Shown here: one piece after another, positions 21,626 to 64,000 of the stretch | How the letters are laid out: each line of letters opens with the position of its first letter | How positions within the stretch are numbered: position 1 is the first letter of the stretch | Origin: Nitrospirota bacterium | GTDB taxonomy: Bacteria; Nitrospirota; UBA9217 | Assembly: GCA_963751455.1 (NCBI GenBank) | Contig: CAVVUN010000015.1 | Location: 1,312,001-1,376,000, forward strand | Reading direction: 5' to 3' | Length of the DNA stretch: 64,000 nt | The notes under the pieces: model-generated | The model's database searches: none | What the model saw: only the letters and a program-made list of their open reading frames with translations | Told to the model about the DNA's origin: nothing | Made by a program: the position numbers and the translations under genes

Positions 21626-22540
21626 TCAGAATTCAAACAGCCGCTTATTGATGTCTATCGCGGCAACTGCGCCCTCACCGGCTGCTATGATTGCCTGGTC
21701 GTTCCCGGTGTTGAGCGGACCCACTATGTACAAGCCGTTCAGGGATGATTCATACGCCTGGTTTACCACGAACTTGAACCCCTTTACATCCCGCTGCAGG
21801 CCGAGGTCCTTCAGAAACTGATCGTTCAGTTTGTAACCGAAATTCGAAAACACCGCGTTGCACGGGATCACGGTCCCGTTCTTCATCTCGATTGCCTCGA
21901 TGGCGTCTCCGCCGGAGATCTTTCTTGGCTCGCCCTTGACCAGCCGGATGCCTTCGCCTCGCAGCTCTTCCTTATAATCATCGGGAGGGTCGTAGAAATA
22001 CAGAAGCAGGGTTATGTCCCGGGTATAGCGTTCCTTTATGAAAAAGGCGAGCCGAACCGATTCTATGGTATTGCCTATGATCACGAGCTTTTTGCCGATT
22101 GTCTTGTAACCGTCGCAGTCAACGCACGTAAAGAACGAGCTCCCCAGGTATGTGTGGATGTTCTGTATGGGCGGAAAATTATCCCGGACGCCGGAGGAAA
22201 CGATTACGAATTTTGACCGATGAAGCCTGTCATTGGCCGTAATCTGGAAATGCCCTTTTTTTGCAATGGAGGTGACCAGCCCATGCTCGATCCGTACATT
22301 AAAGCTTTTTGCCTGCTGCAGTCCGACTTCAACAAGTTGCCCGCCGGATATGGCTTTCTGCGTAAGGAAGTTTTCTATTGATCTGGCGTGCGCGGTCCTG
22401 CCTCCGCCGCGGTCGATCAGCAGAACCGAGCGGTTGAAACGTCCGAGGTATATGGCTGCCTGGAGGCCGCCCGGGCCCGCGCCTATGATTAAGCAGTCGT
22501 ACAGGACATCGTCTTGTGATTTCGGTTGGCTGTTTGTCAT
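21626..22540 (-). CDS. NAD(P)/FAD-dependent oxidoreductase, thioredoxin-reductase-like
   Basis: IIGAGPGGL FAD motif, CVDCDG redox motif, C-terminal A.GEGAVAA. Confidence 0.88.
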   Translation of the reverse strand: MTNSQPKSQDDVLYDCLIIGAGPGGLQAAIYLGRFNRSVLLIDRGGGRTAHARSIENFLTQKAISGGQLVEVGLQQAKSFNVRIEHGLVTSIAKKGHFQITANDRLHRSKFVIVSSGVRDNFPPIQNIHTYLGSSFFTCVDCDGYKTIGKKLVIIGNTIESVRLAFFIKERYTRDITLLLYFYDPPDDYKEELRGEGIRLVKGEPRKISGGDAIEAIEMKNGTVIPCNAVFSNFGYKLNDQFLKDLGLQRDVKGFKFVVNQAYESSLNGLYIVGPLNTGNDQAIIAAGEGAVAAIDINKRLFEF

Positions 22541-52575: not shown

Positions 52576-53811
52576 GTGATCGAGGAACTTGTTCGGTTGA
52601 GCCAGGACTTCATCCGGCTCTATAACCGTGACTATGTACGGTACTTTTTGAAGGAGAACAGGCTGGACAGCCGGTTCTCCCTCATCGTTGGCCAGCGGGG
52701 TGTCGGCAAGACTACGGCCATCATCCAGCACCTTCTTGCATCCTACCGAAACGACCCCTTTACCGACAAGGCGCTCTATATCCAGGCGGACCATTTCCTG
52801 CTCGGCAAGCGCAGCCTCTATGAAATCGCGGAAGAATTCCATTACCTGGGCGGAGAACTGATCTGCCTCGATGAAATTCACAAGTACCCGGACTGGGCGG
52901 CACACCTCAAAAGCATCAACGACACGTTTCCCAAGCTCAGAATCGTCTCGTCCGGAAGCTCCGCCCTGGAAATCCATCGTGGGAGCCATGATTTGAGCAG
53001 GAGGGCCGTAGTGTACCGGATGTACGGCATGTCGCTACGGGAATTCATCGAAATGACGCAGGATGTCGCACTTGGGAGCTTCAAGCTCGAGGATATCCTG
53101 AAAAGCCACCAGCGGATCAGCCAGGATGTCATTGGGGCGCTTGAAAAGAAGGATAAAAAAATCCTCGCGCTCTTTCGCGAATATCTTGAATATGGCTACT
53201 ATCCGTACTTCCGGGAATATAAGAACAAGAAGCTCTTTCACATCACCCTGGAGCAAAACGTCCACACGACACTTGAAAGCGATCTGATCACCATCTATCC
53301 TTCCTTGAGCGGAGCGAGCATCAAGAAGATCAAGAAGCTCCTGGCCATCATCGCCGTGTCCGTTCCGTTCACCCCGGATCTTAAGAACCTGAAGACCGCG
53401 CTCGACATGGGCGACGAACGTACGCTGAAGAATTATCTGAAATACCTTGAGGATGCCGGCATCATCCTGACTATATCAAAAAGCGGCAGGGGACTCCGGG
53501 AACTCGAGAAGCCGGAAAAGATATACCTGAATAATCCGAACCTGATCCACGCGATTGCGGGCCGCGCGCCGGCAGAAACCGGCAATATCCGCGAAACGTT
53601 CTTTCTCGCCATGATCCATGCGCAGCATAAAGTAACTTCGCACACTGATGGTGATTTTTTTGTAGACGGGAAATATGCCTTTGAAGTCGGTGGAAAAAAT
53701 AAAGGCCCCGGCCGGCTCAAGGCGGCTAAGAACGCATATTTGGCCGTCGACAATATAGAAATTGGCGTTGGAAACAGAATCCCTCTCTGGTTATTCGGGT
53801 TTCTGTATTAA
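52576..53811 (+). CDS. AAA family ATPase (AAA_14/DUF4143-like)
   Basis: GQRGVGKTT, LDEIHKY, SGSS, DLSRR, KPEKIYLNN, RETFF, FEVGGKNK, IPLWLFGFLY. Confidence 0.9.
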   Translation: MIEELVRLSQDFIRLYNRDYVRYFLKENRLDSRFSLIVGQRGVGKTTAIIQHLLASYRNDPFTDKALYIQADHFLLGKRSLYEIAEEFHYLGGELICLDEIHKYPDWAAHLKSINDTFPKLRIVSSGSSALEIHRGSHDLSRRAVVYRMYGMSLREFIEMTQDVALGSFKLEDILKSHQRISQDVIGALEKKDKKILALFREYLEYGYYPYFREYKNKKLFHITLEQNVHTTLESDLITIYPSLSGASIKKIKKLLAIIAVSVPFTPDLKNLKTALDMGDERTLKNYLKYLEDAGIILTISKSGRGLRELEKPEKIYLNNPNLIHAIAGRAPAETGNIRETFFLAMIHAQHKVTSHTDGDFFVDGKYAFEVGGKNKGPGRLKAAKNAYLAVDNIEIGVGNRIPLWLFGFLY

Positions 53812-53847
53812 GAGTTTTGGCGAGGATCTGCGAACAATAATCTGGTA

Positions 53848-53876
53848 TTGACAATGACTCTAAAAGGTAGTACATT
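53848..53876 (+). promoter_or_regulatory. Sigma70-like promoter of the TA operon
   Basis: TTGACA-17 nt-TACATT. Confidence 0.6.
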
Positions 53877-53917
53877 TATTAATAGTAATGCTTTATTGAA
53901 AGGTAAGGTAAATTACA

Positions 53918-54172
53918 ATGACGACGTCAGCAGTGAAAATCACCCGGAAGGGACAGGTTACGATTCCTAAGGAAATCCGGGATAAATTGCAGGCAAATGC
54001 CGTTTATTTTGAGGTGAAGAACGATATCGTCATGGTAAAGCCGGTACGGGACGCTGCCGGTTCACTCCGGGAATACGCTCGAAACGTCAAACCCGGCGTC
54101 TCCATGAAACAGATGAAAGAGAAGGCGTGGGGGGAAGCCATACGTGAAAAAGCCGGCAAGAAGTCTGCCTGA
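53918..54172 (+). CDS. AbrB/MazE/SpoVT-family antitoxin
   Basis: KITRKGQVTIPKEIRDKL. Confidence 0.9.
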   Translation: MTTSAVKITRKGQVTIPKEIRDKLQANAVYFEVKNDIVMVKPVRDAAGSLREYARNVKPGVSMKQMKEKAWGEAIREKAGKKSA

Positions 54173-54545
54173 TACGAACGTCATCATCAGGTATCTGGTC
54201 GAAGACGATACCGCTCTATACGCAAAAGCGAAGGAATTCTTTGACAAAGTGAAACAGGGCAGCGTCAAAGCCGTGATCCTCGAAAGCGTCATTGCCGAAT
54301 GCGTTTATGTTCTCACGAAGATCTATAAAGTTCCCCGTGATCGGGCCGCATCGAGTCTCATTGATGTCCTTCGCTATAAGGGGATTGCCAATGGCGACCA
54401 GCAGGAACTAATCCGTGCGCTGTCAATGTTCTCGGACCAGGGCCTCGATATCGTTGATTGCATCTTATGCTCCAAAGCATCAGCCACCCAAGGCCAGCTC
54501 TTTTCTTTCGATGCAGATCTGAACAAAACCATGCGACGTACGTAA
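54144..54545 (+). CDS. PIN-domain (VapC-like) toxin
   Basis: DTNVIIRYL, E..YVL, D.VDC, SFD.DL; overlaps the antitoxin. Confidence 0.9.
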   Translation: MKKPARSLPDTNVIIRYLVEDDTALYAKAKEFFDKVKQGSVKAVILESVIAECVYVLTKIYKVPRDRAASSLIDVLRYKGIANGDQQELIRALSMFSDQGLDIVDCILCSKASATQGQLFSFDADLNKTMRRT

Positions 54546-54649: not shown

Positions 54650-56038
54650 GGTAGCGTTGTCAAGTGGAGACCTGACAAAAGCCCCCCATTTTACGCGCAT
54701 TATGCATCAAATCCGTTATAGTAATAAGCCAGCCGGACTTTCATGACATTCAGCGCTCCGGCCTCGGTCCACTTGCTCACGTTTACCCGCATATTGACCG
54801 TGCGCATGAGTCGCTCCACCTTGCTCGTGGTCTTACCGTCTAATCTCTTCTTGATCGCCGTAAACATATCCGGGCGGGCATTTTCAAGATAAGCGGCTGT
54901 GTGAGTATATTCTCTCTCAGCGCACCGCTTTATCAGTTCATCCAGCCGGGCCTTCTTCGAAGCGATCATCGCGGCTATCGTCTGCTTGTCGTCTACAAAC
55001 GGCCGTATCGCGCAGATTTCCATCAGCTCCACGATCACATACAACCAGTCCTCGCTCTTACGCTTCACTTTGTCCTGCCACAACACATACTTCGCTTGAT
55101 AGGGAATATGCCACAAGCAGCGCTGAACAATTATCTTCACCTTCCCCTTAAGAGCATCCAGGATGGAGGTGTCGCCGTCGGTGATTAAGGAAAACGGACG
55201 GGTGAAGCTCCCCAGAGCCTTGAGACTCTTCTTGAAAAGGTTGTCCCAGGACCCGTTATAATTCCCGATATCAAGGCCCGCCACCCGCACGCCGCCACCC
55301 TTCTTGTACTGTATGAACGCCTTCAATTCCTTCCCGCGCTTCTTGATTCCCTTGATGCCGATCCCGGTCCCGTCAGCCTCGCCCTGGGGAAGCTCCTTTT
55401 CATCAACCTTGAACTCTATTTCCGACCCCGTCTTTTGGACAGCGCTCCAGACCGTCATCTTGTCCACGGCCCAGCCGAACATCTTGCCGATCTTCTCCGC
55501 CACACGAAAGGTTGTCAAGGAACCCAGAAGCCCAAGCTTTCGATAAATTTCTGCCGCTATTCGCTTTTTCGGCTTCATTCCGAGCAGCTTTCGGGTGATG
55601 TAGAGCTTACTCCCACAGCGTTTGCAAACAACCTGGAGCTGCTGTAACCAGACCCATTGGTAAAAGGCATGAATCTTAGTCTTTTTCCCGTGCCGCGTCT
55701 TCCATGTGAATTCCCGATCATTGCCGCACCCGCAGGCAAAAGGCTTTTTCTTAAGAGCCATCACATGCTCGCCAAAGCCTACAAGCACTTTCTGAATGAA
55801 GTCCGTCAAAATCTGCGGCAAAAGCTCGGCAAAGGCGGCGAGTATTGATGAAAGAGAGCTGTCCTTCAAATGCACTTCAAATTGACAATCAAAACTGATG
55901 GTGATACCTTTCCTTTGTGGGGTAACACCCATATTGCCCTCCTGTTTTATGGTTAGTTTCGTCCAAAACTATTATCCATAAAATGGAGGGCAATTTGTTG
56001 TTACTTCATGTCCAAAGTCTCTCCTTTTCTACACTACC
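54650..56038 (-). mobile_element. ISH6-family insertion sequence (1389 bp)
   Basis: Imperfect TIRs GGTAGCGTTGTCAAGTGGAGAC / GGTAGTGTAGAAAAGGAGAGAC; 8-bp target duplication AAAATCTT at 54642-54649 and 56039-56046. Confidence 0.85.
54700..55932 (-). CDS. DDE transposase (ISH6/UPF0236-like)
   Basis: EADGT, ITDGD, QRCLWH, TTSKVERLMR motifs; bounded by TIRs and a target duplication. Confidence 0.85.
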   Translation of the reverse strand: MGVTPQRKGITISFDCQFEVHLKDSSLSSILAAFAELLPQILTDFIQKVLVGFGEHVMALKKKPFACGCGNDREFTWKTRHGKKTKIHAFYQWVWLQQLQVVCKRCGSKLYITRKLLGMKPKKRIAAEIYRKLGLLGSLTTFRVAEKIGKMFGWAVDKMTVWSAVQKTGSEIEFKVDEKELPQGEADGTGIGIKGIKKRGKELKAFIQYKKGGGVRVAGLDIGNYNGSWDNLFKKSLKALGSFTRPFSLITDGDTSILDALKGKVKIIVQRCLWHIPYQAKYVLWQDKVKRKSEDWLYVIVELMEICAIRPFVDDKQTIAAMIASKKARLDELIKRCAEREYTHTAAYLENARPDMFTAIKKRLDGKTTSKVERLMRTVNMRVNVSKWTEAGALNVMKVRLAYYYNGFDA

Positions 56039-56896: not shown

Positions 56897-58594
56897 ATGA
56901 GAAAAAGTAACGCAACATACCTGGCTGTTGCACTGCTCATCCTCATAGCGTTTGTCCTGATCGTCCGCCTCTGGGCAAGCGGACGGGCCGCGGCCGTTGT
57001 CGGGCCGACGCAAATACGGCTTGGGGAAAACGGCATTATTTATCTGCTGAGCGACAGAAAGCTCTATCTGCATGACAAAGACGGAGATCTCGTTGATATA
57101 ATACCGATTGCAAAATTCGGGATCAGCGGTCTCGTCATCGGGGATTTCTGGGTCTACAAAAACGGAGATATTCTCCTGCGGCGGCAGGTTGACCGGGCGC
57201 TGACGGTTTCAGGAGAAGCTGAAATGTTTGCAAGGACCGGGGCGGGCGTAAATGACAGACTCGGCACCGGTGAAAGCATCCTGCAGCGCTGCAGTACGAC
57301 AACGTTTGCGTGCGAAACATTCGGCAAGGGCCGCGACGTCTTCGACAGGATCACGACGTACCGTCTCGCCGTGGACGAGGAAAAAGGATTGACCTATCTG
57401 TCCGACACCATCGGCCATGAGTTGCTGATGCTTGACGATCACGGCATTGTAGCTGCAAAGTCCGGCGCTTCCTTTCAATTCCCGAACCAGATACTCCTGG
57501 AAGAGGGCGGCCTCCTCTATGTCGCGGACACCAACAACCACAGGATAGCAGCGGTAAAGACGAATAGAAATGCGTTCGGCGCGCTCGAGAGAGAGTTCAA
57601 GATAGTGCATCCCCGGATTCCTGGCAAGATGACGTGGCCCATGGCAATTGCCCATACGCCTGACAGGAAATGGTGGGTCATTAATGCAGATGACAATATG
57701 GGAGACGGGATCGTGATGATCCACAACGAGAAGGGAAGCTTCGAGAAAATCGTTTCCCTGCCGCCAAACGCGGACCCGCTCTGTCTTGCTGTTGTCGGCG
57801 ACCGTATTTTGCTTACGGACCGGACGCTCATGAGAGTCTACCAGGCGGACCTGAACGGCCAGTTACTCGATGATTTCGGTTCCCTGCTTTTAAAGCTCGA
57901 TTTATCCGAGCTTCGAAGAAAGCAGCGGCTCTACGATTCGCTGGCGCAAATTTCTATGTGGCTGCTGCTCGTTCTTCTGGTGTCCTCATTTTTCGTGGCG
58001 CGACAGGCGCGGCTTGAGCAGGCTACGCAGCCACAGAGACAGCCGGATCAGCGGCTGGCAGCGGGTGCATTGTCCAGCGGGGCACTACTCAACAAACAAT
58101 ATGACTATCACAGCATCCTTGGACTGCATAGAATACAATTCGTTGTTCTCACGATTATGCTGCTCACTGCGTTTGCATTCTTCATCATGATCAGCAGGGG
58201 TATGACTGTTGTCCATAAACAATTCATGCCTCTTGTATTAGTTGCGCACGTCGGGTCCTCGCTCGCAACGTATTATAAATTAAAACACTCCTCCGTAGAA
58301 TTAACCGAACAGGGCATCACCTGTAATGGATGGAAGAAAAAAATCACTTCGCCCTGGATGGCTGTAAAAAAAATCAATGTGTATGGCAGGAACGTGAAAA
58401 TAACGACTGATTACGGCAATTTTTCGATAGGCATGGTTGAGCCTGCGGATAGTCCAGCGCGGGGCTGGCTGGACCTGCTCAAACCAGAGCGTGCGAAGTT
58501 TCTGAAACAGCTGGTCAATGAGATCCAGAAACGGGCACCCGGCGCAAAGGTAACCATTTCACTATTAGTGAGGCGGCAGTGGAATCGGCTTTAA
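56897..58594 (+). CDS. NHL-repeat (beta-propeller) membrane protein
   Basis: F.FPNQI...LYVADTNNHRI repeats; N-terminal anchor and three C-terminal TM segments. Confidence 0.82.
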   Translation: MRKSNATYLAVALLILIAFVLIVRLWASGRAAAVVGPTQIRLGENGIIYLLSDRKLYLHDKDGDLVDIIPIAKFGISGLVIGDFWVYKNGDILLRRQVDRALTVSGEAEMFARTGAGVNDRLGTGESILQRCSTTTFACETFGKGRDVFDRITTYRLAVDEEKGLTYLSDTIGHELLMLDDHGIVAAKSGASFQFPNQILLEEGGLLYVADTNNHRIAAVKTNRNAFGALEREFKIVHPRIPGKMTWPMAIAHTPDRKWWVINADDNMGDGIVMIHNEKGSFEKIVSLPPNADPLCLAVVGDRILLTDRTLMRVYQADLNGQLLDDFGSLLLKLDLSELRRKQRLYDSLAQISMWLLLVLLVSSFFVARQARLEQATQPQRQPDQRLAAGALSSGALLNKQYDYHSILGLHRIQFVVLTIMLLTAFAFFIMISRGMTVVHKQFMPLVLVAHVGSSLATYYKLKHSSVELTEQGITCNGWKKKITSPWMAVKKINVYGRNVKITTDYGNFSIGMVEPADSPARGWLDLLKPERAKFLKQLVNEIQKRAPGAKVTISLLVRRQWNRL

Positions 58595-59029: not shown

Positions 59030-62000
59030 ATGCGTGTAAAGACCTTCTTTCGTTTTTTAAGAATCGTCTCGGCAGTGGTATTATTTTTCTTCGTTTGGAC
59101 TTTCAGCGAAATCTGGCAAGCAGTGGCTTGGGCGGCTGCGCCGGCGCAGGTTAAGACGACGCAGGCCCGGAGCGAAAAGCCGAAACCGGCATCCGCTGCG
59201 GAGCAATTCGAGGCAGCGCTTGAGGGGCTGATGGAACGAATCGGCAAAACCGGCGAAAAGGCCGCGCGCAATGAAGACATCACCGAAGATCTCGGACAGC
59301 TCAAAACCGTTAAAGCCGCTATCGAAGCGCTCGATGGGGAATTGAGAAAAGAATTTTCAAACACGGAAAAGCGCCTCATTGATTCAAAGCTCCCAAAAGA
59401 AATACTCGCCAGACATGCTGCATTCGTGAAAAATTGTGAGAACAATCTTTCCCAGCTTAAAACCGAAATAGATGACCTCGACAAGGCAAAGACTAAGGCA
59501 GACCGCAAGTCGAAGATCGAAAAGGTTCGTCTGCACCTCGAAAAAACCAAAGCCCCGTCGCGTCATCAAAAACTCGACCCCGAAAATTTACCGTTCAGGG
59601 CAAGGAAGGCCGCAAAAGCCCGCGAACCGCGACTTAAAAAGGAAGACTTCAAAGAGTTCGGGCCGCAGAAGCGCACGAATTTGGCCGCAGATGAACACAG
59701 ATTGACACAGATTGCTTCGGGGATGCAAGATGCAGGATTTAGGATGCATGATAAAAATATTTCATATAGATCCGTTCAAAAGCCTCTCCTCCTCGCCTAT
59801 AACGCAGAGACCGCCACCGACGCTCCTCTGTCTTTTTATCAAAAACCCGAAACTCGAAACGCTGAACTCGAACCGTTTTCTACTATCGCTTTCTCCGAAC
59901 CAATTTTGAATATTGAATCCGGCACTTTGAATTTGGCGCAAGCCGTAGGCGCGCCAACTGCAGACGATCTCGCGCAAACGCCTGATGTTCAGTTTACTTC
60001 TGAAATCCGTGCGAAGGCTCAGGAACTCGGATACAATCCGGTCAAAATCTACGAGTATGTCAGGAACAACATTGAATATGCCCCTCTATACGGGTCCATC
60101 CAGGGAGCAGACCAGTGCCTTCAGTCGAAGATTTGCAATGATTTCGATACGGCGTCCATTCTAATCGCCCTTCTTCGAGTATCGGGCATATCAGCGAGAT
60201 ATGTATATGGAACAGTCGATATCCCTATGGAACAGGCAATGAACTGGGTTGGCGGCGTGACCGACCCCAAGATGGTCGGAACGATCCTCGCTACAAATGG
60301 GGTTCCCGTCACGCTCCTTAAGACCAGCTCTGGTGTCTACAAATACGTGAGGATGGAGCGTGTCCTCGTCAGCGCATTCATCGACTATATCCCAAGCCGC
60401 GGGGCGGTCCACAAACAGGGTGATACATGGATTCCGCTCGATCCGAGCTTCAAACAATACGACTTCAAACATGGTATGGATTTGTATACCGCAATGGGGA
60501 TTAATGGCGAGCAATATCTTCAGAGTTACATTACGGACACATCGTCTCTTACAATCCCAACAGAATTACAAGCATCATTTCCAGCATATACCATAAGCCC
60601 GTATCAATATTACAGCAAAAGGCTGTTCAATTACCTCGACACTAATTTTCCTTCCGCAACTTATCAGGACGTATTTGGTGCAGACACGATTGAGGCTTCA
60701 AGAGCAATAATCAAGAAAGAATATCCGTATCTTATGGGTACTCTGCCCTACAGCGTAGTTACGCAAGGCGCATCATTCGCATTCATCCCGGACAGTCTTA
60801 GACACAAAGTAAATTTCCTGATTGGAGACACGACCTTATCTGACGCAAGCTTAACCTACACGGCAAGCTTGCCCGAAATCGCCGGTAAAAGAATAACCCT
60901 CTCATCTGTTCCTGCGACGGCATCAGATGAGTCACTCGTGAACCAGTATGGTACAATGCTGAACGTTCCGCCATATCTTCTCTCTGTGAAAATGGCGTTG
61001 AAAATCAATGGGATTGCCGTGGCGACTGGTAGCCCTGCTGGTCTCGGCAAGGTGCAGACATTTAACATGAGTTTCACCATCCCCAACATAGGAACGGAAA
61101 TCGTTATAAACACGGTAACTGCGGGAGATTACTCAGCAATTCCAATTATCTCCTGCAACGTTCCCTTTACTTTGGTAGGGGATAAAATGGAAACTCTTAT
61201 CAACAACATCGGAAGCTCTGATCTCGATGATCTGTTAGGCCAGATGCTTTACAACGTCGGAGTATCGTACTTCCATCATCTTAATTTTGAGGAAGAGCTG
61301 TATGCCAAGAACTTCAAGATGATCATAACCAAGGGTCTCTCAGAGGCTATCGTAACCTCTCACGCTGAAACCGATTCGCTTTGGGGTGTGCCATATAAAA
61401 TCTCAGAAGGCGGAATAGGGATCGATGTAGGCAAGAATGAATACTTCCCCTTCCCTTACGACGGCAGCAGCAATCGGGCACGCGATTTCATGATAGTATC
61501 AGGCCTCGGCAGCTCAGCATGGGAAGATAGAGTGCTTCAAGCTTTCTATGATGTACCGTCCGTCTCGGCAGCACGACTTCTCAGATATGCCAGTCAGCAA
61601 GGCGTGCTGATTTACACAATTGATGGAACTAACATTAGCGATATTCTGCCGCAACTTCTGGTTTCTTCACAAGTACTAGACGATATTAAAAATGCTGTGA
61701 ATGCCAGCAAAAAAGTAATCATCTCGAAAACCGGTGTCCAATATGAGGGGATGGACAGTATAGGCTATATTGTGCTCGATCCGGGAACAGGAGCGGCTGG
61801 TTATATGATTAGCGGTGGGCTCGCAGGGGGCATGAGCAGCCAGCCAGATGATATGTCGGTAAGAGATATTACTCAATATTTGCGTGATGGATCAGCACTC
61901 AGAACAATTTATGGAAGATCGATGGTTGTTATGTATGCTTTAGCACAATTAGGCACTCCGTATCGTACCGGGTTTGAAGACCCCGGTCCCATGGGTGGGG

Positions 62001-62380
62001 CAGATCCAGACAAGGGGTTTGATTGCTCGGGGCTCATATATTATTTATTCACGACTGTTTACAATAAACATATTTTTGGACCTGAGAGATTATGGACAGT
62101 AGACCGTCAACATAGATATTTATTGGAAAAGAAAATGACTCATCTTTATGAGGAAAAACTCGACGGCGATATACTGTGGAGCGATAACTACGGCCATACT
62201 GGAATATATTATGGCATTCATGCACTTCTGCCAGGGGAAACTCTTGTTACAGACTCTGTAATTCACGCAAATCGCGGCAAATGGTTTAGCGCGGTTATTA
62301 TTACATCTACAAATAACGCAGCCTTTACGGGTGCGCCAAGTGGCAGTCGTATGCCTGATATAGGAAGACCAGTTCCTTAA
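59030..62380 (+). CDS. Large secreted transglutaminase-like protein with C-terminal NlpC/P60 domain (candidate polymorphic toxin)
   Basis: Signal peptide; IYEYVRNNIEY...GS.QGA...CNDFDTASILIALLRVSGI.ARY...W.PLDPS; junction GYIVLDPGTGAAGYMISGGLAGG; tip LGTPY...GFDCSGL...GHTGIY...VIHA; start at ATG 59030 after ggag. Confidence 0.82.
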   Translation: MRVKTFFRFLRIVSAVVLFFFVWTFSEIWQAVAWAAAPAQVKTTQARSEKPKPASAAEQFEAALEGLMERIGKTGEKAARNEDITEDLGQLKTVKAAIEALDGELRKEFSNTEKRLIDSKLPKEILARHAAFVKNCENNLSQLKTEIDDLDKAKTKADRKSKIEKVRLHLEKTKAPSRHQKLDPENLPFRARKAAKAREPRLKKEDFKEFGPQKRTNLAADEHRLTQIASGMQDAGFRMHDKNISYRSVQKPLLLAYNAETATDAPLSFYQKPETRNAELEPFSTIAFSEPILNIESGTLNLAQAVGAPTADDLAQTPDVQFTSEIRAKAQELGYNPVKIYEYVRNNIEYAPLYGSIQGADQCLQSKICNDFDTASILIALLRVSGISARYVYGTVDIPMEQAMNWVGGVTDPKMVGTILATNGVPVTLLKTSSGVYKYVRMERVLVSAFIDYIPSRGAVHKQGDTWIPLDPSFKQYDFKHGMDLYTAMGINGEQYLQSYITDTSSLTIPTELQASFPAYTISPYQYYSKRLFNYLDTNFPSATYQDVFGADTIEASRAIIKKEYPYLMGTLPYSVVTQGASFAFIPDSLRHKVNFLIGDTTLSDASLTYTASLPEIAGKRITLSSVPATASDESLVNQYGTMLNVPPYLLSVKMALKINGIAVATGSPAGLGKVQTFNMSFTIPNIGTEIVINTVTAGDYSAIPIISCNVPFTLVGDKMETLINNIGSSDLDDLLGQMLYNVGVSYFHHLNFEEELYAKNFKMIITKGLSEAIVTSHAETDSLWGVPYKISEGGIGIDVGKNEYFPFPYDGSSNRARDFMIVSGLGSSAWEDRVLQAFYDVPSVSAARLLRYASQQGVLIYTIDGTNISDILPQLLVSSQVLDDIKNAVNASKKVIISKTGVQYEGMDSIGYIVLDPGTGAAGYMISGGLAGGMSSQPDDMSVRDITQYLRDGSALRTIYGRSMVVMYALAQLGTPYRTGFEDPGPMGGADPDKGFDCSGLIYYLFTTVYNKHIFGPERLWTVDRQHRYLLEKKMTHLYEEKLDGDILWSDNYGHTGIYYGIHALLPGETLVTDSVIHANRGKWFSAVIITSTNNAAFTGAPSGSRMPDIGRPVP

Positions 62381-62397
62381 TCAAAGGAGAAATTATT

Positions 62398-63384
62398 ATG
62401 GTTATCAGAATTATTATTAGCGTGCTGCTAATGTTGGCATGCGCAACATCTTCAAGGGCAGAAGAGTTTTCCGTCAGAAAGGTCATACTATCTCGATTTA
62501 AAGTAAAAAACGACGTGATAGTAGATTTGCCAAAGATGTCACCCTATTGGCCTGAGGTAAATAGAGGTATTCTCGCCATAGATAATCAGGGGCGGATATA
62601 TATTTTGAATTTATGGAATAATGAAATTCTCGTTTTTAACGATCAGGGGAAGTTGCGAGATAAAATTAGTTTGCCAATGAGATTGTATAGATTTGAACAT
62701 ATGAATGGAGAAATAGAAGTCTCTGGTGATGGTAAACGATTATTTGTGGAAGGATATGACCAATCCAATAAAATGAATCAAATTCTTTTAGATCAAAATG
62801 GCAAAATTGTTAGGCAATTTATTAGTGATAATGAAATCATTTGGAACTTTCCTGATGCTCGCCTTTGTAATAAGCCTTATTATCTCTTCAAAAAAGGTGG
62901 TCTTCTTTATGATGAGAATTTTTATAAATTAAGCGGTCAGTATCAAGGATTTGTCGACTCAGAAGGAAAATATACATTTGATTTCGAGAAACGGCTGCTG
63001 ATTAAGCTTCGACAGGATGGTGGGAGAATATGGGAGAAACAGTTTAACACTAATATTGAAATCGTCGGTCTTGATGCAAACAGTTTCCTTTATATTGTTA
63101 CACGTCTAAAAAATGACGATCCTGATTATTTATATAAACTCAATTCAAAGGGTAAAATTCTGGCAAAGGTTCCCATTCCTAAACCATTTCCCCTTCTGAC
63201 ACAAGAAGAAAAGGAAGACTTTTATGCGCTGATATCTGAGGAGCCGTTTGCCTCTTTCAAGCTTACTTGCAATGGCGACGTATATTTGATATTTCGTCTT
63301 AACAAATTGCCTGAGCCTGCATTCAAACGTTGGCTAAAGGGCGGAGAATATTTTATTTATAAATTCGAGACACTTGGTAAATAG
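62398..63384 (+). CDS. Exported beta-propeller-like protein, putative immunity protein
   Basis: Starts 17 nt after the toxin-like gene, SD aaggag, signal peptide, AT-rich, AID.QG.IYIL...N.EI.VF..QG repeats. Confidence 0.7.
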   Translation: MVIRIIISVLLMLACATSSRAEEFSVRKVILSRFKVKNDVIVDLPKMSPYWPEVNRGILAIDNQGRIYILNLWNNEILVFNDQGKLRDKISLPMRLYRFEHMNGEIEVSGDGKRLFVEGYDQSNKMNQILLDQNGKIVRQFISDNEIIWNFPDARLCNKPYYLFKKGGLLYDENFYKLSGQYQGFVDSEGKYTFDFEKRLLIKLRQDGGRIWEKQFNTNIEIVGLDANSFLYIVTRLKNDDPDYLYKLNSKGKILAKVPIPKPFPLLTQEEKEDFYALISEEPFASFKLTCNGDVYLIFRLNKLPEPAFKRWLKGGEYFIYKFETLGK

Positions 63385-63642
63385 TAAAGGATATGGTTTT
63401 TTATGGCTATGGTGCTACCTGTACCTTAATTTGTTTCATTATGGCATTAATCTTAAGGAAAATTAACATCAAAGGAAAAACGACAACCATTAATCTTCGA
63501 TTCACAAGATAACGTTTAATACTTGGTGCGGCAAACAGAGCTAGGGATCATACGTGCTGACTAAGCGATTGAGGCGTGGTATCAATGCAAAATCTTACAA
63601 GTTTCGGCATGTAGTGCTCACTGTCTGAGACCCGGAGGAGCT

Positions 63643-64000
63643 ATGCGGAAAAGATCACTAAGCTGTATCGTTTTCATCATCTTCTCTATCGTTAGTTCTT
63701 CAGTCTTCGCCCAATCTCCGCAAATATCGACCGGCCTTACCTGGCTCTACTCTGCTCAAACATCGAGCGGTAACTGGCCGGAAGTGGCGACCACCGATTA
63801 TTACTCCACTACCACAGCGCTTGATGCGGTTTATGCACTCGATTCCTCAAGCCCGGCATACTCTGCGGGCTTCCAGTGGATGACCGGCCAGATCTTTTCT
63901 CCGGTGGATTATCTCTCACGCCGGGTCATTGCACTCACGCGTTCAGGGCAGGATATATCAACCGAATTATCCGGACTTATTCTTTATCACAATTCCGATG
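63643..64000 (+). CDS. Secreted protein with prenyltransferase/squalene-oxidase-like repeats, N-terminal part (runs off the window)
   Basis: SD ggagga; MRKRSLSCIVFIIFSIVSSSVFA-QSPQISTGLTWLYSAQTSSGNW...AGFQWM...DYLSRRVIAL; G..WL...Q...G.W repeat; open to the window end. Confidence 0.7.
   Translation, partial: MRKRSLSCIVFIIFSIVSSSVFAQSPQISTGLTWLYSAQTSSGNWPEVATTDYYSTTTALDAVYALDSSSPAYSAGFQWMTGQIFSPVDYLSRRVIALTRSGQDISTELSGLILYHNSD

Follow-up and report, generated by a model that had tools for sequence, protein, structure and literature searches.

Do the last three genes in a 64,000-nucleotide (nt) stretch of DNA from a Nitrospirota bacterium (contig CAVVUN010000015.1, positions 1,312,001 to 1,376,000; hereafter the window) belong to a system that is directed against other bacteria? 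An earlier reading made from the letters alone (the sequence-only reading) had proposed that these genes encode a toxin carrier with an NlpC/P60 tip, an immunity protein, and a partner with prenyltransferase-like repeats. Our analysis of sequences and structural models indicates that the locus is likely an interbacterial polymorphic toxin system, wherein an exported carrier with a dead transglutaminase core is followed by a glycine-pair (GG) junction, an exchangeable tip, and an adjacent immunity gene. The architecture, the dead core, the intact tip, the exchange of tips and partners, the presence of orphan tip modules, and the linkage to a prenyltransferase-barrel (PT) gene are all directly supported. 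The relevant features, in window coordinates, are as follows.

59030..62380 (+), carrier-toxin open reading frame (ORF) of 1116 amino acids (aa), assigned from Pfam, an AlphaFold model, and a structure match
59030..59134 (+), predicted Sec signal peptide or N-terminal anchor, with a basic start, a hydrophobic helix, and an AWA motif
59993..60442 (+), transglutaminase-like core, judged inactive, with D371 at the Cys position, R444 at the His position, and D471 kept
61763..61831 (+), junction G-Y-I..D-P.T-G-A-G-A-Y-M-I-S-G-G..G, where carrier-carrier homology stops
61832..62380 (+), NlpC/P60 tip of 182 aa, a predicted peptidoglycan endopeptidase with C999/H1056/H1079
62398..63384 (+), predicted exported NHL-like beta-propeller of 328 aa, 35.7% GC, likely a periplasmic immunity protein
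63643..64000 (+), start of a PT and CARDB gene encoding 916 aa that ends past the window at G000:C15:1378393

The carrier gene begins with an ATG at 59030 that is preceded by GGAG 6 nt upstream. Its product had been described as a secreted protein of about 1100 aa with a transglutaminase-like core, and indeed the 1116-aa ORF carries an export signal and a Pfam match to Transglut_core (aa 322–407, E 4e-11). The AlphaFold model (predicted local distance difference test score 83, predicted template modeling score 0.81) includes the export signal or N-terminal helix (aa ~1–35), a helical bundle (aa 56–173), a disordered linker, a compact body (~300–934), and a separate tip. The helical bundle and linker separate the export signal from the transglutaminase core, and the domains following the core, up to aa 934, are of the beta/alpha type. 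The N terminus is predicted to be a Sec signal peptide or an N-terminal anchor; among aligned homologs, a hydrophobic stretch is present in 77 of 101, and 66 of those 77 also carry an A-x-A motif.

The core of the carrier, judged by its residues, is catalytically dead. Alignment to structure 3ISR places D371 at the position of the catalytic Cys, and the 122 aligned carrier rows have D, A, S, or N (119 rows) or a gap (3 rows) at this position, with Cys in none. The His position is occupied by R444 in this carrier and by His in 110 of the 122 rows. Thus, the Cys-His-Asp triad of active transglutaminases and cysteine proteases is absent (D371, R444, D471), and we rejected the reading of the core as an active transglutaminase because the nucleophile is absent. 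The earlier suggestion that the core may be structural is consistent with these residues, although the Cys of the CNDFD motif on which it drew does not fall at the nucleophile position in the 3ISR alignment.

The Gly-rich junction GYIVLDPGTGAAGYMISGGLAGG, which had been noticed near 61760–61830, spans aa 912–934 (nt 61763–61831). Its interpretation as a double-glycine leader or as an Rhs DPxG autocleavage site, suggested by a resemblance, was rejected; the model shows a strand followed by a Gly hinge. Pfam finds no MafB, haemagglutinin, or RHS domain in this carrier. The middle and C-terminal domains gave no structural match in searches that used the whole model, which does not show a new fold because the domains were not folded singly, and an ESM Atlas search with aa 560–934 returned one unnamed, sub-threshold match (0.76).

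Beyond the junction, an NlpC/P60 domain follows as the sequence-only reading had stated. The Pfam match to NLPC_P60 (aa 988–1067, E 1e-4) scores 22.7 bits, just below the cut-off of 23, and the modelled tip (aa ~960–1115) superposes on NlpC/P60 structures (VIA Z 16.6, root-mean-square deviation 1.8, 120 aligned, 7CFL). The tip has the papain-like NlpC fold with its catalytic set C999, H1056, and H1079 intact, and is predicted from the model to be a peptidoglycan endopeptidase. The base composition also changes here. The earlier impression that the DNA becomes AT-richer past the junction holds for GC content at third codon positions (GC3), which steps clearly from 50.9 in the carrier to 33.9 in the tip and 32.5 in the next gene, whereas the shift in total GC is modest (tip versus the preceding 549 nt of carrier, Fisher p=0.13). 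For the carrier, tip, next gene, and third gene, total GC is 47.9, 42.8, 35.7, and 49.9%, respectively. Scans of the region for promoters and terminators stayed at chance level, and the region has no listed sequencing run.

Homologs provide the main evidence that the tip is an exchangeable part. The alignment comprises the best 120 of 638 homologs compared over aa 290–940, which have 42–76% carrier identity and source names that are mostly Nitrospirota, and conservation among them stops at the junction. The 67 homologs with NlpC tips average 54% identity in the carrier and 30% in the tip, and the catalytic His is kept in 67 of 67 (the Cys being the selection criterion). Two pairs are discordant in opposite directions: P0013 and P0016 have 90% carrier identity and 26% tip identity, and P0006 and P0052 have 52% carrier identity and 66% tip identity. 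This finding indicates that tips have been exchanged.

The same pattern is evident within this genome (G000). The window end cuts a 34-kb tandem array, of which the present unit is the first and in which the unit of carrier, tip, next gene, and PT gene recurs just downstream, such that two further carriers with other tips and partners, plus an orphan tip module, are present.

G000:C15:1379741-1382920, carrier 2, with a hydrophobic tip, located after the 916-aa PT/CARDB gene and followed by a two-transmembrane protein and a 924-aa PT/CARDB gene
G000:C15:1388549-1392022, carrier 3, with a different NlpC tip, followed by another exported propeller
G000:C15:1393104-1394171, orphan module with a third NlpC tip, wherein homology to the carrier starts at about aa 817

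Beyond the orphan module lie two short ORFs and the gene of a 3223-aa PT protein. The three full carriers share 39–40% identity up to the junction (aa 1–940) and diverge beyond it, and their next genes differ. Orphan-like tip modules with partial carrier homology also are found in loci L035, L036, L044, L045, and L109. Elsewhere in the genome, a carrier on C15 (L071) has DUF6531 and RHS repeats, and a carrier remnant on C1 adjoins a PT gene and a secretin/pseudopilin cluster. Two more carriers, on C4 (G000:C4:30172-72616; L069, L070), belong to a divergent subfamily, also represented by L065 and L066, with Ig-like extensions and a nucleotide pyrophosphatase/phosphodiesterase tip; these are followed by exported proteins of ~290 aa and a 7038-aa PT protein.

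How widely is this carrier used? A carrier profile search yielded 4,137 clusters (50% identity) at E<=1e-30, including fragments and RHS forms. When 137 new top representatives were sorted by tip, 70 were hydrophobic, 5 were NlpC, 54 were neither, and 8 were cut or lacked the junction. A Pfam scan of 40 of the 54 other tips gave a named domain in 10 and no Pfam family in 30; the names are M23 (twice), SLT, M15 (below cut-off), Tox-REase-5, PT-HINT (twice), AHH (twice), RHS with NucA/NucB, and CBM9, with one protein bearing both HINT and AHH. The same carrier also occurs with DUF6531, RHS, and HNH, followed by a DUF4265 gene. Within the phylum, 50 of 401 genomes encode the carrier, and it is present in named Bacillota (Ruminiclostridium hungatei, Paenibacillus soyae, and a Bacillus) and in cultured Gammaproteobacteria, including an RHS-free copy on a Paraglaciecola mesophila plasmid. 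A search of genome contigs with the carrier protein alone returned one locus.

By eye, some tips with a hydrophobic segment and the motifs R-[HK]-Y and G-x-Y-[LF] (P0170, P0174, P0223, P0237, P0246, P0265; L056, L067), which have no Pfam match, recall toxins of the ADP-ribosyltransferase fold. Another tip group without a Pfam family (L051, L063, L064; P0201, P0205, P0206, P0224, P0235) looks caspase-like by eye from its His-Gly and Cys motifs, and in three loci (L051, L063, L064) is paired with one family of proteins of ~310–340 aa.

These data bear on whether the protein could be a cell-wall remodelling enzyme of the producer itself, tethered by the carrier and controlled by the next gene as in the LytE-IseA and MepS-NlpI pairs. 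Structurally, the tip is matched best by housekeeping autolysins, among them LytE, with IseA, and MepS, with NlpI; the NlpC tip is kept by all of ~66 close homologs; and a protein with an export signal would meet its own wall first. A remodelling role is nonetheless highly improbable, given that nucleases, HINT domains, RHS repeats, and hydrophobic tips are also found on the same carrier, that its spread is patchy with differing flanking genes and nearby transposases, and that it occurs in tandem arrays with orphan modules.

If the tip is a toxin, the neighboring gene is its likely immunity gene. This gene begins 17 nt past the carrier stop, and its product is modelled as an NHL-like beta-propeller preceded by a hydrophobic helix at the N terminus. 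The sequence-only reading was right that it is tightly linked, and export is predicted here too; "equally AT-rich" applies to GC3 and not to total GC (35.7 versus 42.8%). To the pairing of tips with next genes we devoted a survey of 127 carrier or orphan ORFs (this one, 54 from genome loci, and 72 from metagenome loci), from which we kept 113 distinct pairs in which neither the tip (>=60 aa) nor the next gene was truncated; the other 14 were cut, short, without a next gene, or duplicates. Both here and in the genome's own array, the carrier and junction are kept while the tip and next gene vary, and the opposite outcome, the same C terminus and downstream gene in all homologs, did not occur. 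By a crude hydropathy rule, the gene after 30 NlpC tips encodes only an N-terminal hydrophobic segment in 26 cases, multiple transmembrane (TM) segments in 1, and neither in 3, and the gene after hydrophobic tips is multi-TM in 48 of 55. GC is below that of the carrier for the tip in 98 of 106 and for the next gene in 100 of 106. The match between tip class and next gene is the pattern expected of immunity genes suited to the compartment in which the tip acts, as far as counts inflated by kin can indicate. Homologs of the 62398–63384 product follow NlpC tips in L035, L075, and L077, more distant ones do so in L083 and L138, and none follows a hydrophobic tip among the surveyed loci. From this sequence evidence, we consider that the propeller is probably the cognate immunity protein of the tip.

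The third gene was said to encode G-x-x-W-L-x-x-x-Q repeats, and the 916-aa product does contain GLTWLYSAQ-type repeats, with SQHop/Prenyltrans and four CARDB matches; its N-terminal ~265 aa form an alpha/alpha barrel. Squalene-hopene cyclases carry a DxDD motif, and thioester proteins of the alpha-2-macroglobulin type carry CxEQ. DxDD is found in 1 of 51 PT domains and CxEQ in 0 of 51, and we rejected a role of the PT protein as an enzymatic prenyltransferase, squalene-hopene cyclase, or alpha-2-macroglobulin-like thioester protein because these motifs are absent. The expectation that this neighbor would be conserved is largely borne out, since 42 of the 57 loci long enough to show it have a PT gene no more than 4 kb downstream. 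Among the 401 phylum genomes, the carrier is present in 50, the PT domain in 41, and both in 39, with PT in 2 of 351 carrier-negative genomes; for PT-positive genomes outside the set used to build the PT profile, the carrier is present in 22 of 24. In Spartinivicinus ruber, a PT homolog (HHalign probability 99.2) is located directly upstream of a transglutaminase-RHS gene.

Across 43 loci, PT-barrel similarity tracks carrier similarity (rho 0.53) despite the variable tip cassette that sits between the two, and the region after the barrel does not (0.09). The PT paralogs of this array are ~51–56% identical in the barrel and 82–86% identical in the CARDB region. These values fit a barrel that serves as a carrier-binding adaptor with a separately exchanged tail, and on the same sequence evidence we regard a physical link between carrier and PT protein as an even proposition. 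PT genes internal to arrays encode ~250–940 aa, and terminal ones usually encode 2,000–7,000 aa. Because the ~920-aa form has the same kind of end in two genomes, it may be a functional short form rather than a product of decay.

L001:643-3393, L001:8872-11646, L039, L035, L046, and L048, examples of short internal PT genes

Giant, adhesin-like PT partners of up to 7038 aa raise another explanation, wherein the carrier and PT adhesin display variable tips to cognate receptors for kin recognition or adhesion, and the tips mark identity rather than kill. Many tips are indeed short and hydrophobic, lack a Pfam family, and are paired with membrane proteins. Retention of the catalytic His in all 67 NlpC tips, under the selection on Cys noted above, and the presence of nucleases or wall hydrolases as other tips leave this explanation with very little probability.

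Several observations weigh against the toxin-immunity interpretation or parts of it. On a FastTree tree of 111 close homologs, tip class changes only twice, so that NlpC and hydrophobic carrier clades exist and most exchange occurs within a class; these sequences suggest that a carrier clade mostly passes on its tip class. Because tip class is strongly clustered on the carrier tree, the 85 cases behind the association between tip and next gene are not independent, and its Fisher p of 5e-15 is an overstatement. The three nearest tips (55–58% identity; L034, L041, L074) precede the YARHG family, with DUF4424 in L041, the homologs of the propeller follow tips only 30–37% identical to this tip, and the genes after NlpC tips fall into at least four unrelated families. 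These facts weaken strict cognate pairing. Regarding the PT protein, 11 of 50 carrier genomes lack a PT match, and no PT gene is annotated beside the carriers on the Paraglaciecola, Methylomonas, and Burkholderia gladioli plasmids. Moreover, common descent may account for the covariation of carrier and PT barrel, and the correlation of the region after PT with the carrier is lowered by the frequent lack of homology in that region. Finally, a secretin gene is present in only one retrieved locus (L073), which leaves the export route without neighborhood support.

The pairing and PT data above are those expected if the system is a toxin system but the propeller, rather than being the cognate inhibitor, stems from a leftover of a previous swap or a broad-range immunity gene, and the PT protein is only an adhesin that travels along without contact with the carrier. 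We judge this version to be unlikely: the propeller gene starts immediately after the carrier and shares the low GC3 of the tip, its homologs follow NlpC tips and no hydrophobic tip, and PT is kept beside the carrier across phyla.

For the polymorphic toxin system that we favor, the following mechanism can be proposed. Sec would carry the carrier into the producer's own periplasm, where a wall-cutting tip must be blocked; the exported beta-propeller very probably would do so, and with similar likelihood hydrophobic tips would instead be paired with small membrane proteins as inhibitors. The folded carrier might then exit by way of a type II-like secretin, in vesicles, or upon lysis, a step that we propose only tentatively. 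The genome has five secretins, one cluster of which adjoins the C1 remnant locus. A type II secretion system (T2SS) cluster as a regular neighbor of the carrier was rejected because of the single retrieved locus, and we give a T2SS route somewhat less than even weight. Binding of the carrier by the non-catalytic PT barrel is about as likely as not, in which case the variable CARDB/FG-GAP/Ig part of the PT protein would serve to anchor or aim the carrier. The tip would damage the wall or membrane of a neighbor, and new tip-immunity pairs would be exchanged by recombination in the conserved carrier.

A bolder and rather doubtful extension is that the carrier and PT barrel together make up a machine of two parts for export and display, with the barrel as the dock by which any carrier-toxin is attached to a giant modular adhesin. 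A killing module (tip plus immunity) and an aiming module (the CARDB/FG-GAP/Ig tail) might then be shuffled independently, although this is equally conjectural. If true, such a machine would be an undescribed route for wall, membrane, and nucleic-acid toxins that uses neither RHS shells nor injection needles, and it would span thousands of sequence clusters.

The surroundings of the array contain additional genes, one of which is possibly associated with it.

56897..58594 (+), possibly associated upstream gene of 565 aa, with an NHL repeat region and a membrane-linked C-terminal part

In L039, a hydrophobic-tip carrier is followed by a small membrane protein with which residues 398–559 of this 565-aa product share 38% identity (E 6e-31), and the upstream gene is possibly a fused spare immunity gene. 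Also upstream of the array is a 410-aa transposase-like ORF with a weak MULE match (54700–55932, −), a copy of which (G000:C1:701637-702869) splits the PT gene beside the carrier remnant on C1. The left edge of the island (52576–54545, +) has an AAA_14/DUF4143 ATPase gene and, after it, 84-aa and 133-aa ORFs that by eye resemble an AbrB-type antitoxin paired with a PIN toxin. Between PT genes and carriers, three loci of this genome have ORFs with DUF4379 zinc-finger repeats and ORFs with HNH-associated repeats.

L001:11568-13130, G000:C4:40997-42235, and G000:C1:709030-713740, sites of DUF4379/HNH-associated-repeat ORFs

In the umbrella toxin particles of Streptomyces, a degenerate enzyme and modular binding domains are assembled with a polymorphic toxin and exported. 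We note this as a possible functional analogy only, with no homology claimed, as the carrier-PT assembly proposed here is hypothetical. In Methylomonas, a transglutaminase-RHS gene comes after the gene of a small protein with a sorting-like C-terminal tail and before that of the exosortase XrtM (L154:11145-11600 and 21646-22152), hinting at surface anchoring by another route.

Our literature searches found no description of the RHS-free fusions, the ~650-aa carrier unit, NlpC tips with propeller or YARHG-type partners, or the PT partner, within a coverage that is thin for subscription literature and given that the full supplementary tables of PMC3482391 may already list such architectures. In their accessible text, PMC7777525 (BTLCP) and PMC12096838 (a transglutaminase that is inactive and joined to seven TM segments) concern other families and not this carrier. 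The carrier family is widespread, yet we found only one paragraph on its RHS-bearing form. Its junction is a clean point of entry in searches for new antibacterial domains and immunity proteins. If the proposed system is real, it would represent a testable new route by which Sec-exported toxins may reach other cells, and a main competition weapon of mostly uncultured Nitrospirota-type bacteria.

MafB, contact-dependent inhibition (CDI), and Rhs systems have a conserved N terminus, a junction, a variable tip, an adjacent immunity gene, and downstream orphan modules. The sequence-only reading had drawn this parallel, and the conserved carrier, junction, variable tip, adjacent gene, and orphan modules found here agree with it, whereas the carrier fold and partner gene differ from those systems. 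The general polymorphic-toxin scheme is also set out in the accessible text of PMC3482391.

With regard to the tip and its neighbor, the accessible text of PMC3391265 describes the peptidoglycan-hydrolase toxin Tse1 of Pseudomonas aeruginosa as inhibited by the periplasmic partial propeller Tsi1. By analogy only, this pair is a precedent for a propeller-like inhibitor of a wall hydrolase, as is predicted here. Tse1 is injected by a type VI secretion system (T6SS), whereas the tip in this locus belongs to a carrier with a signal peptide and its neighbor is modelled as a full NHL-like propeller. We did not place the system in the T6SS amidase effector class (Tae/Tai, Tse1/Tsi1), since an N-terminal signal is present and the VipB family has no match in this genome, which is listed as 100% complete.

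The closest known architecture is that of Zhang et al. 2012 (PMC3482391), who describe polymorphic toxins with inactive transglutaminase domains located after a signal peptide and before RHS repeats. Judged by the accessible text of that paper, the signal peptide, the transglutaminase core without catalytic residues, and the variable C-terminal toxin are common to both, and so, tentatively, is the Sec/T2SS class. Matches of our carrier profile to RHS proteins occur in L071 of this genome, in L073, and on Methylomonas, Spartinivicinus, and Burkholderia plasmids, and RHS repeats are present in the carrier relatives L071, L073, and P0240. By sequence, the carrier is homologous to the N terminus of transglutaminase-RHS proteins, which may be the same sequences as those of Zhang et al. 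2012. This homology means that the carrier is not wholly undescribed, and the earlier view of it as a little-described family can be kept for the RHS-free form, for which no description was found. In the text of PMC3482391 accessible to us, prenyltransferase, squalene, and CARDB partners are unmentioned and no immunity protein is given for Tox-NLPC/P60. Relative to that account, the system described here differs in that the tip is fused directly to the junction with no RHS array in between, and in that the shared unit is a conserved carrier of ~650 aa rather than the transglutaminase core alone.

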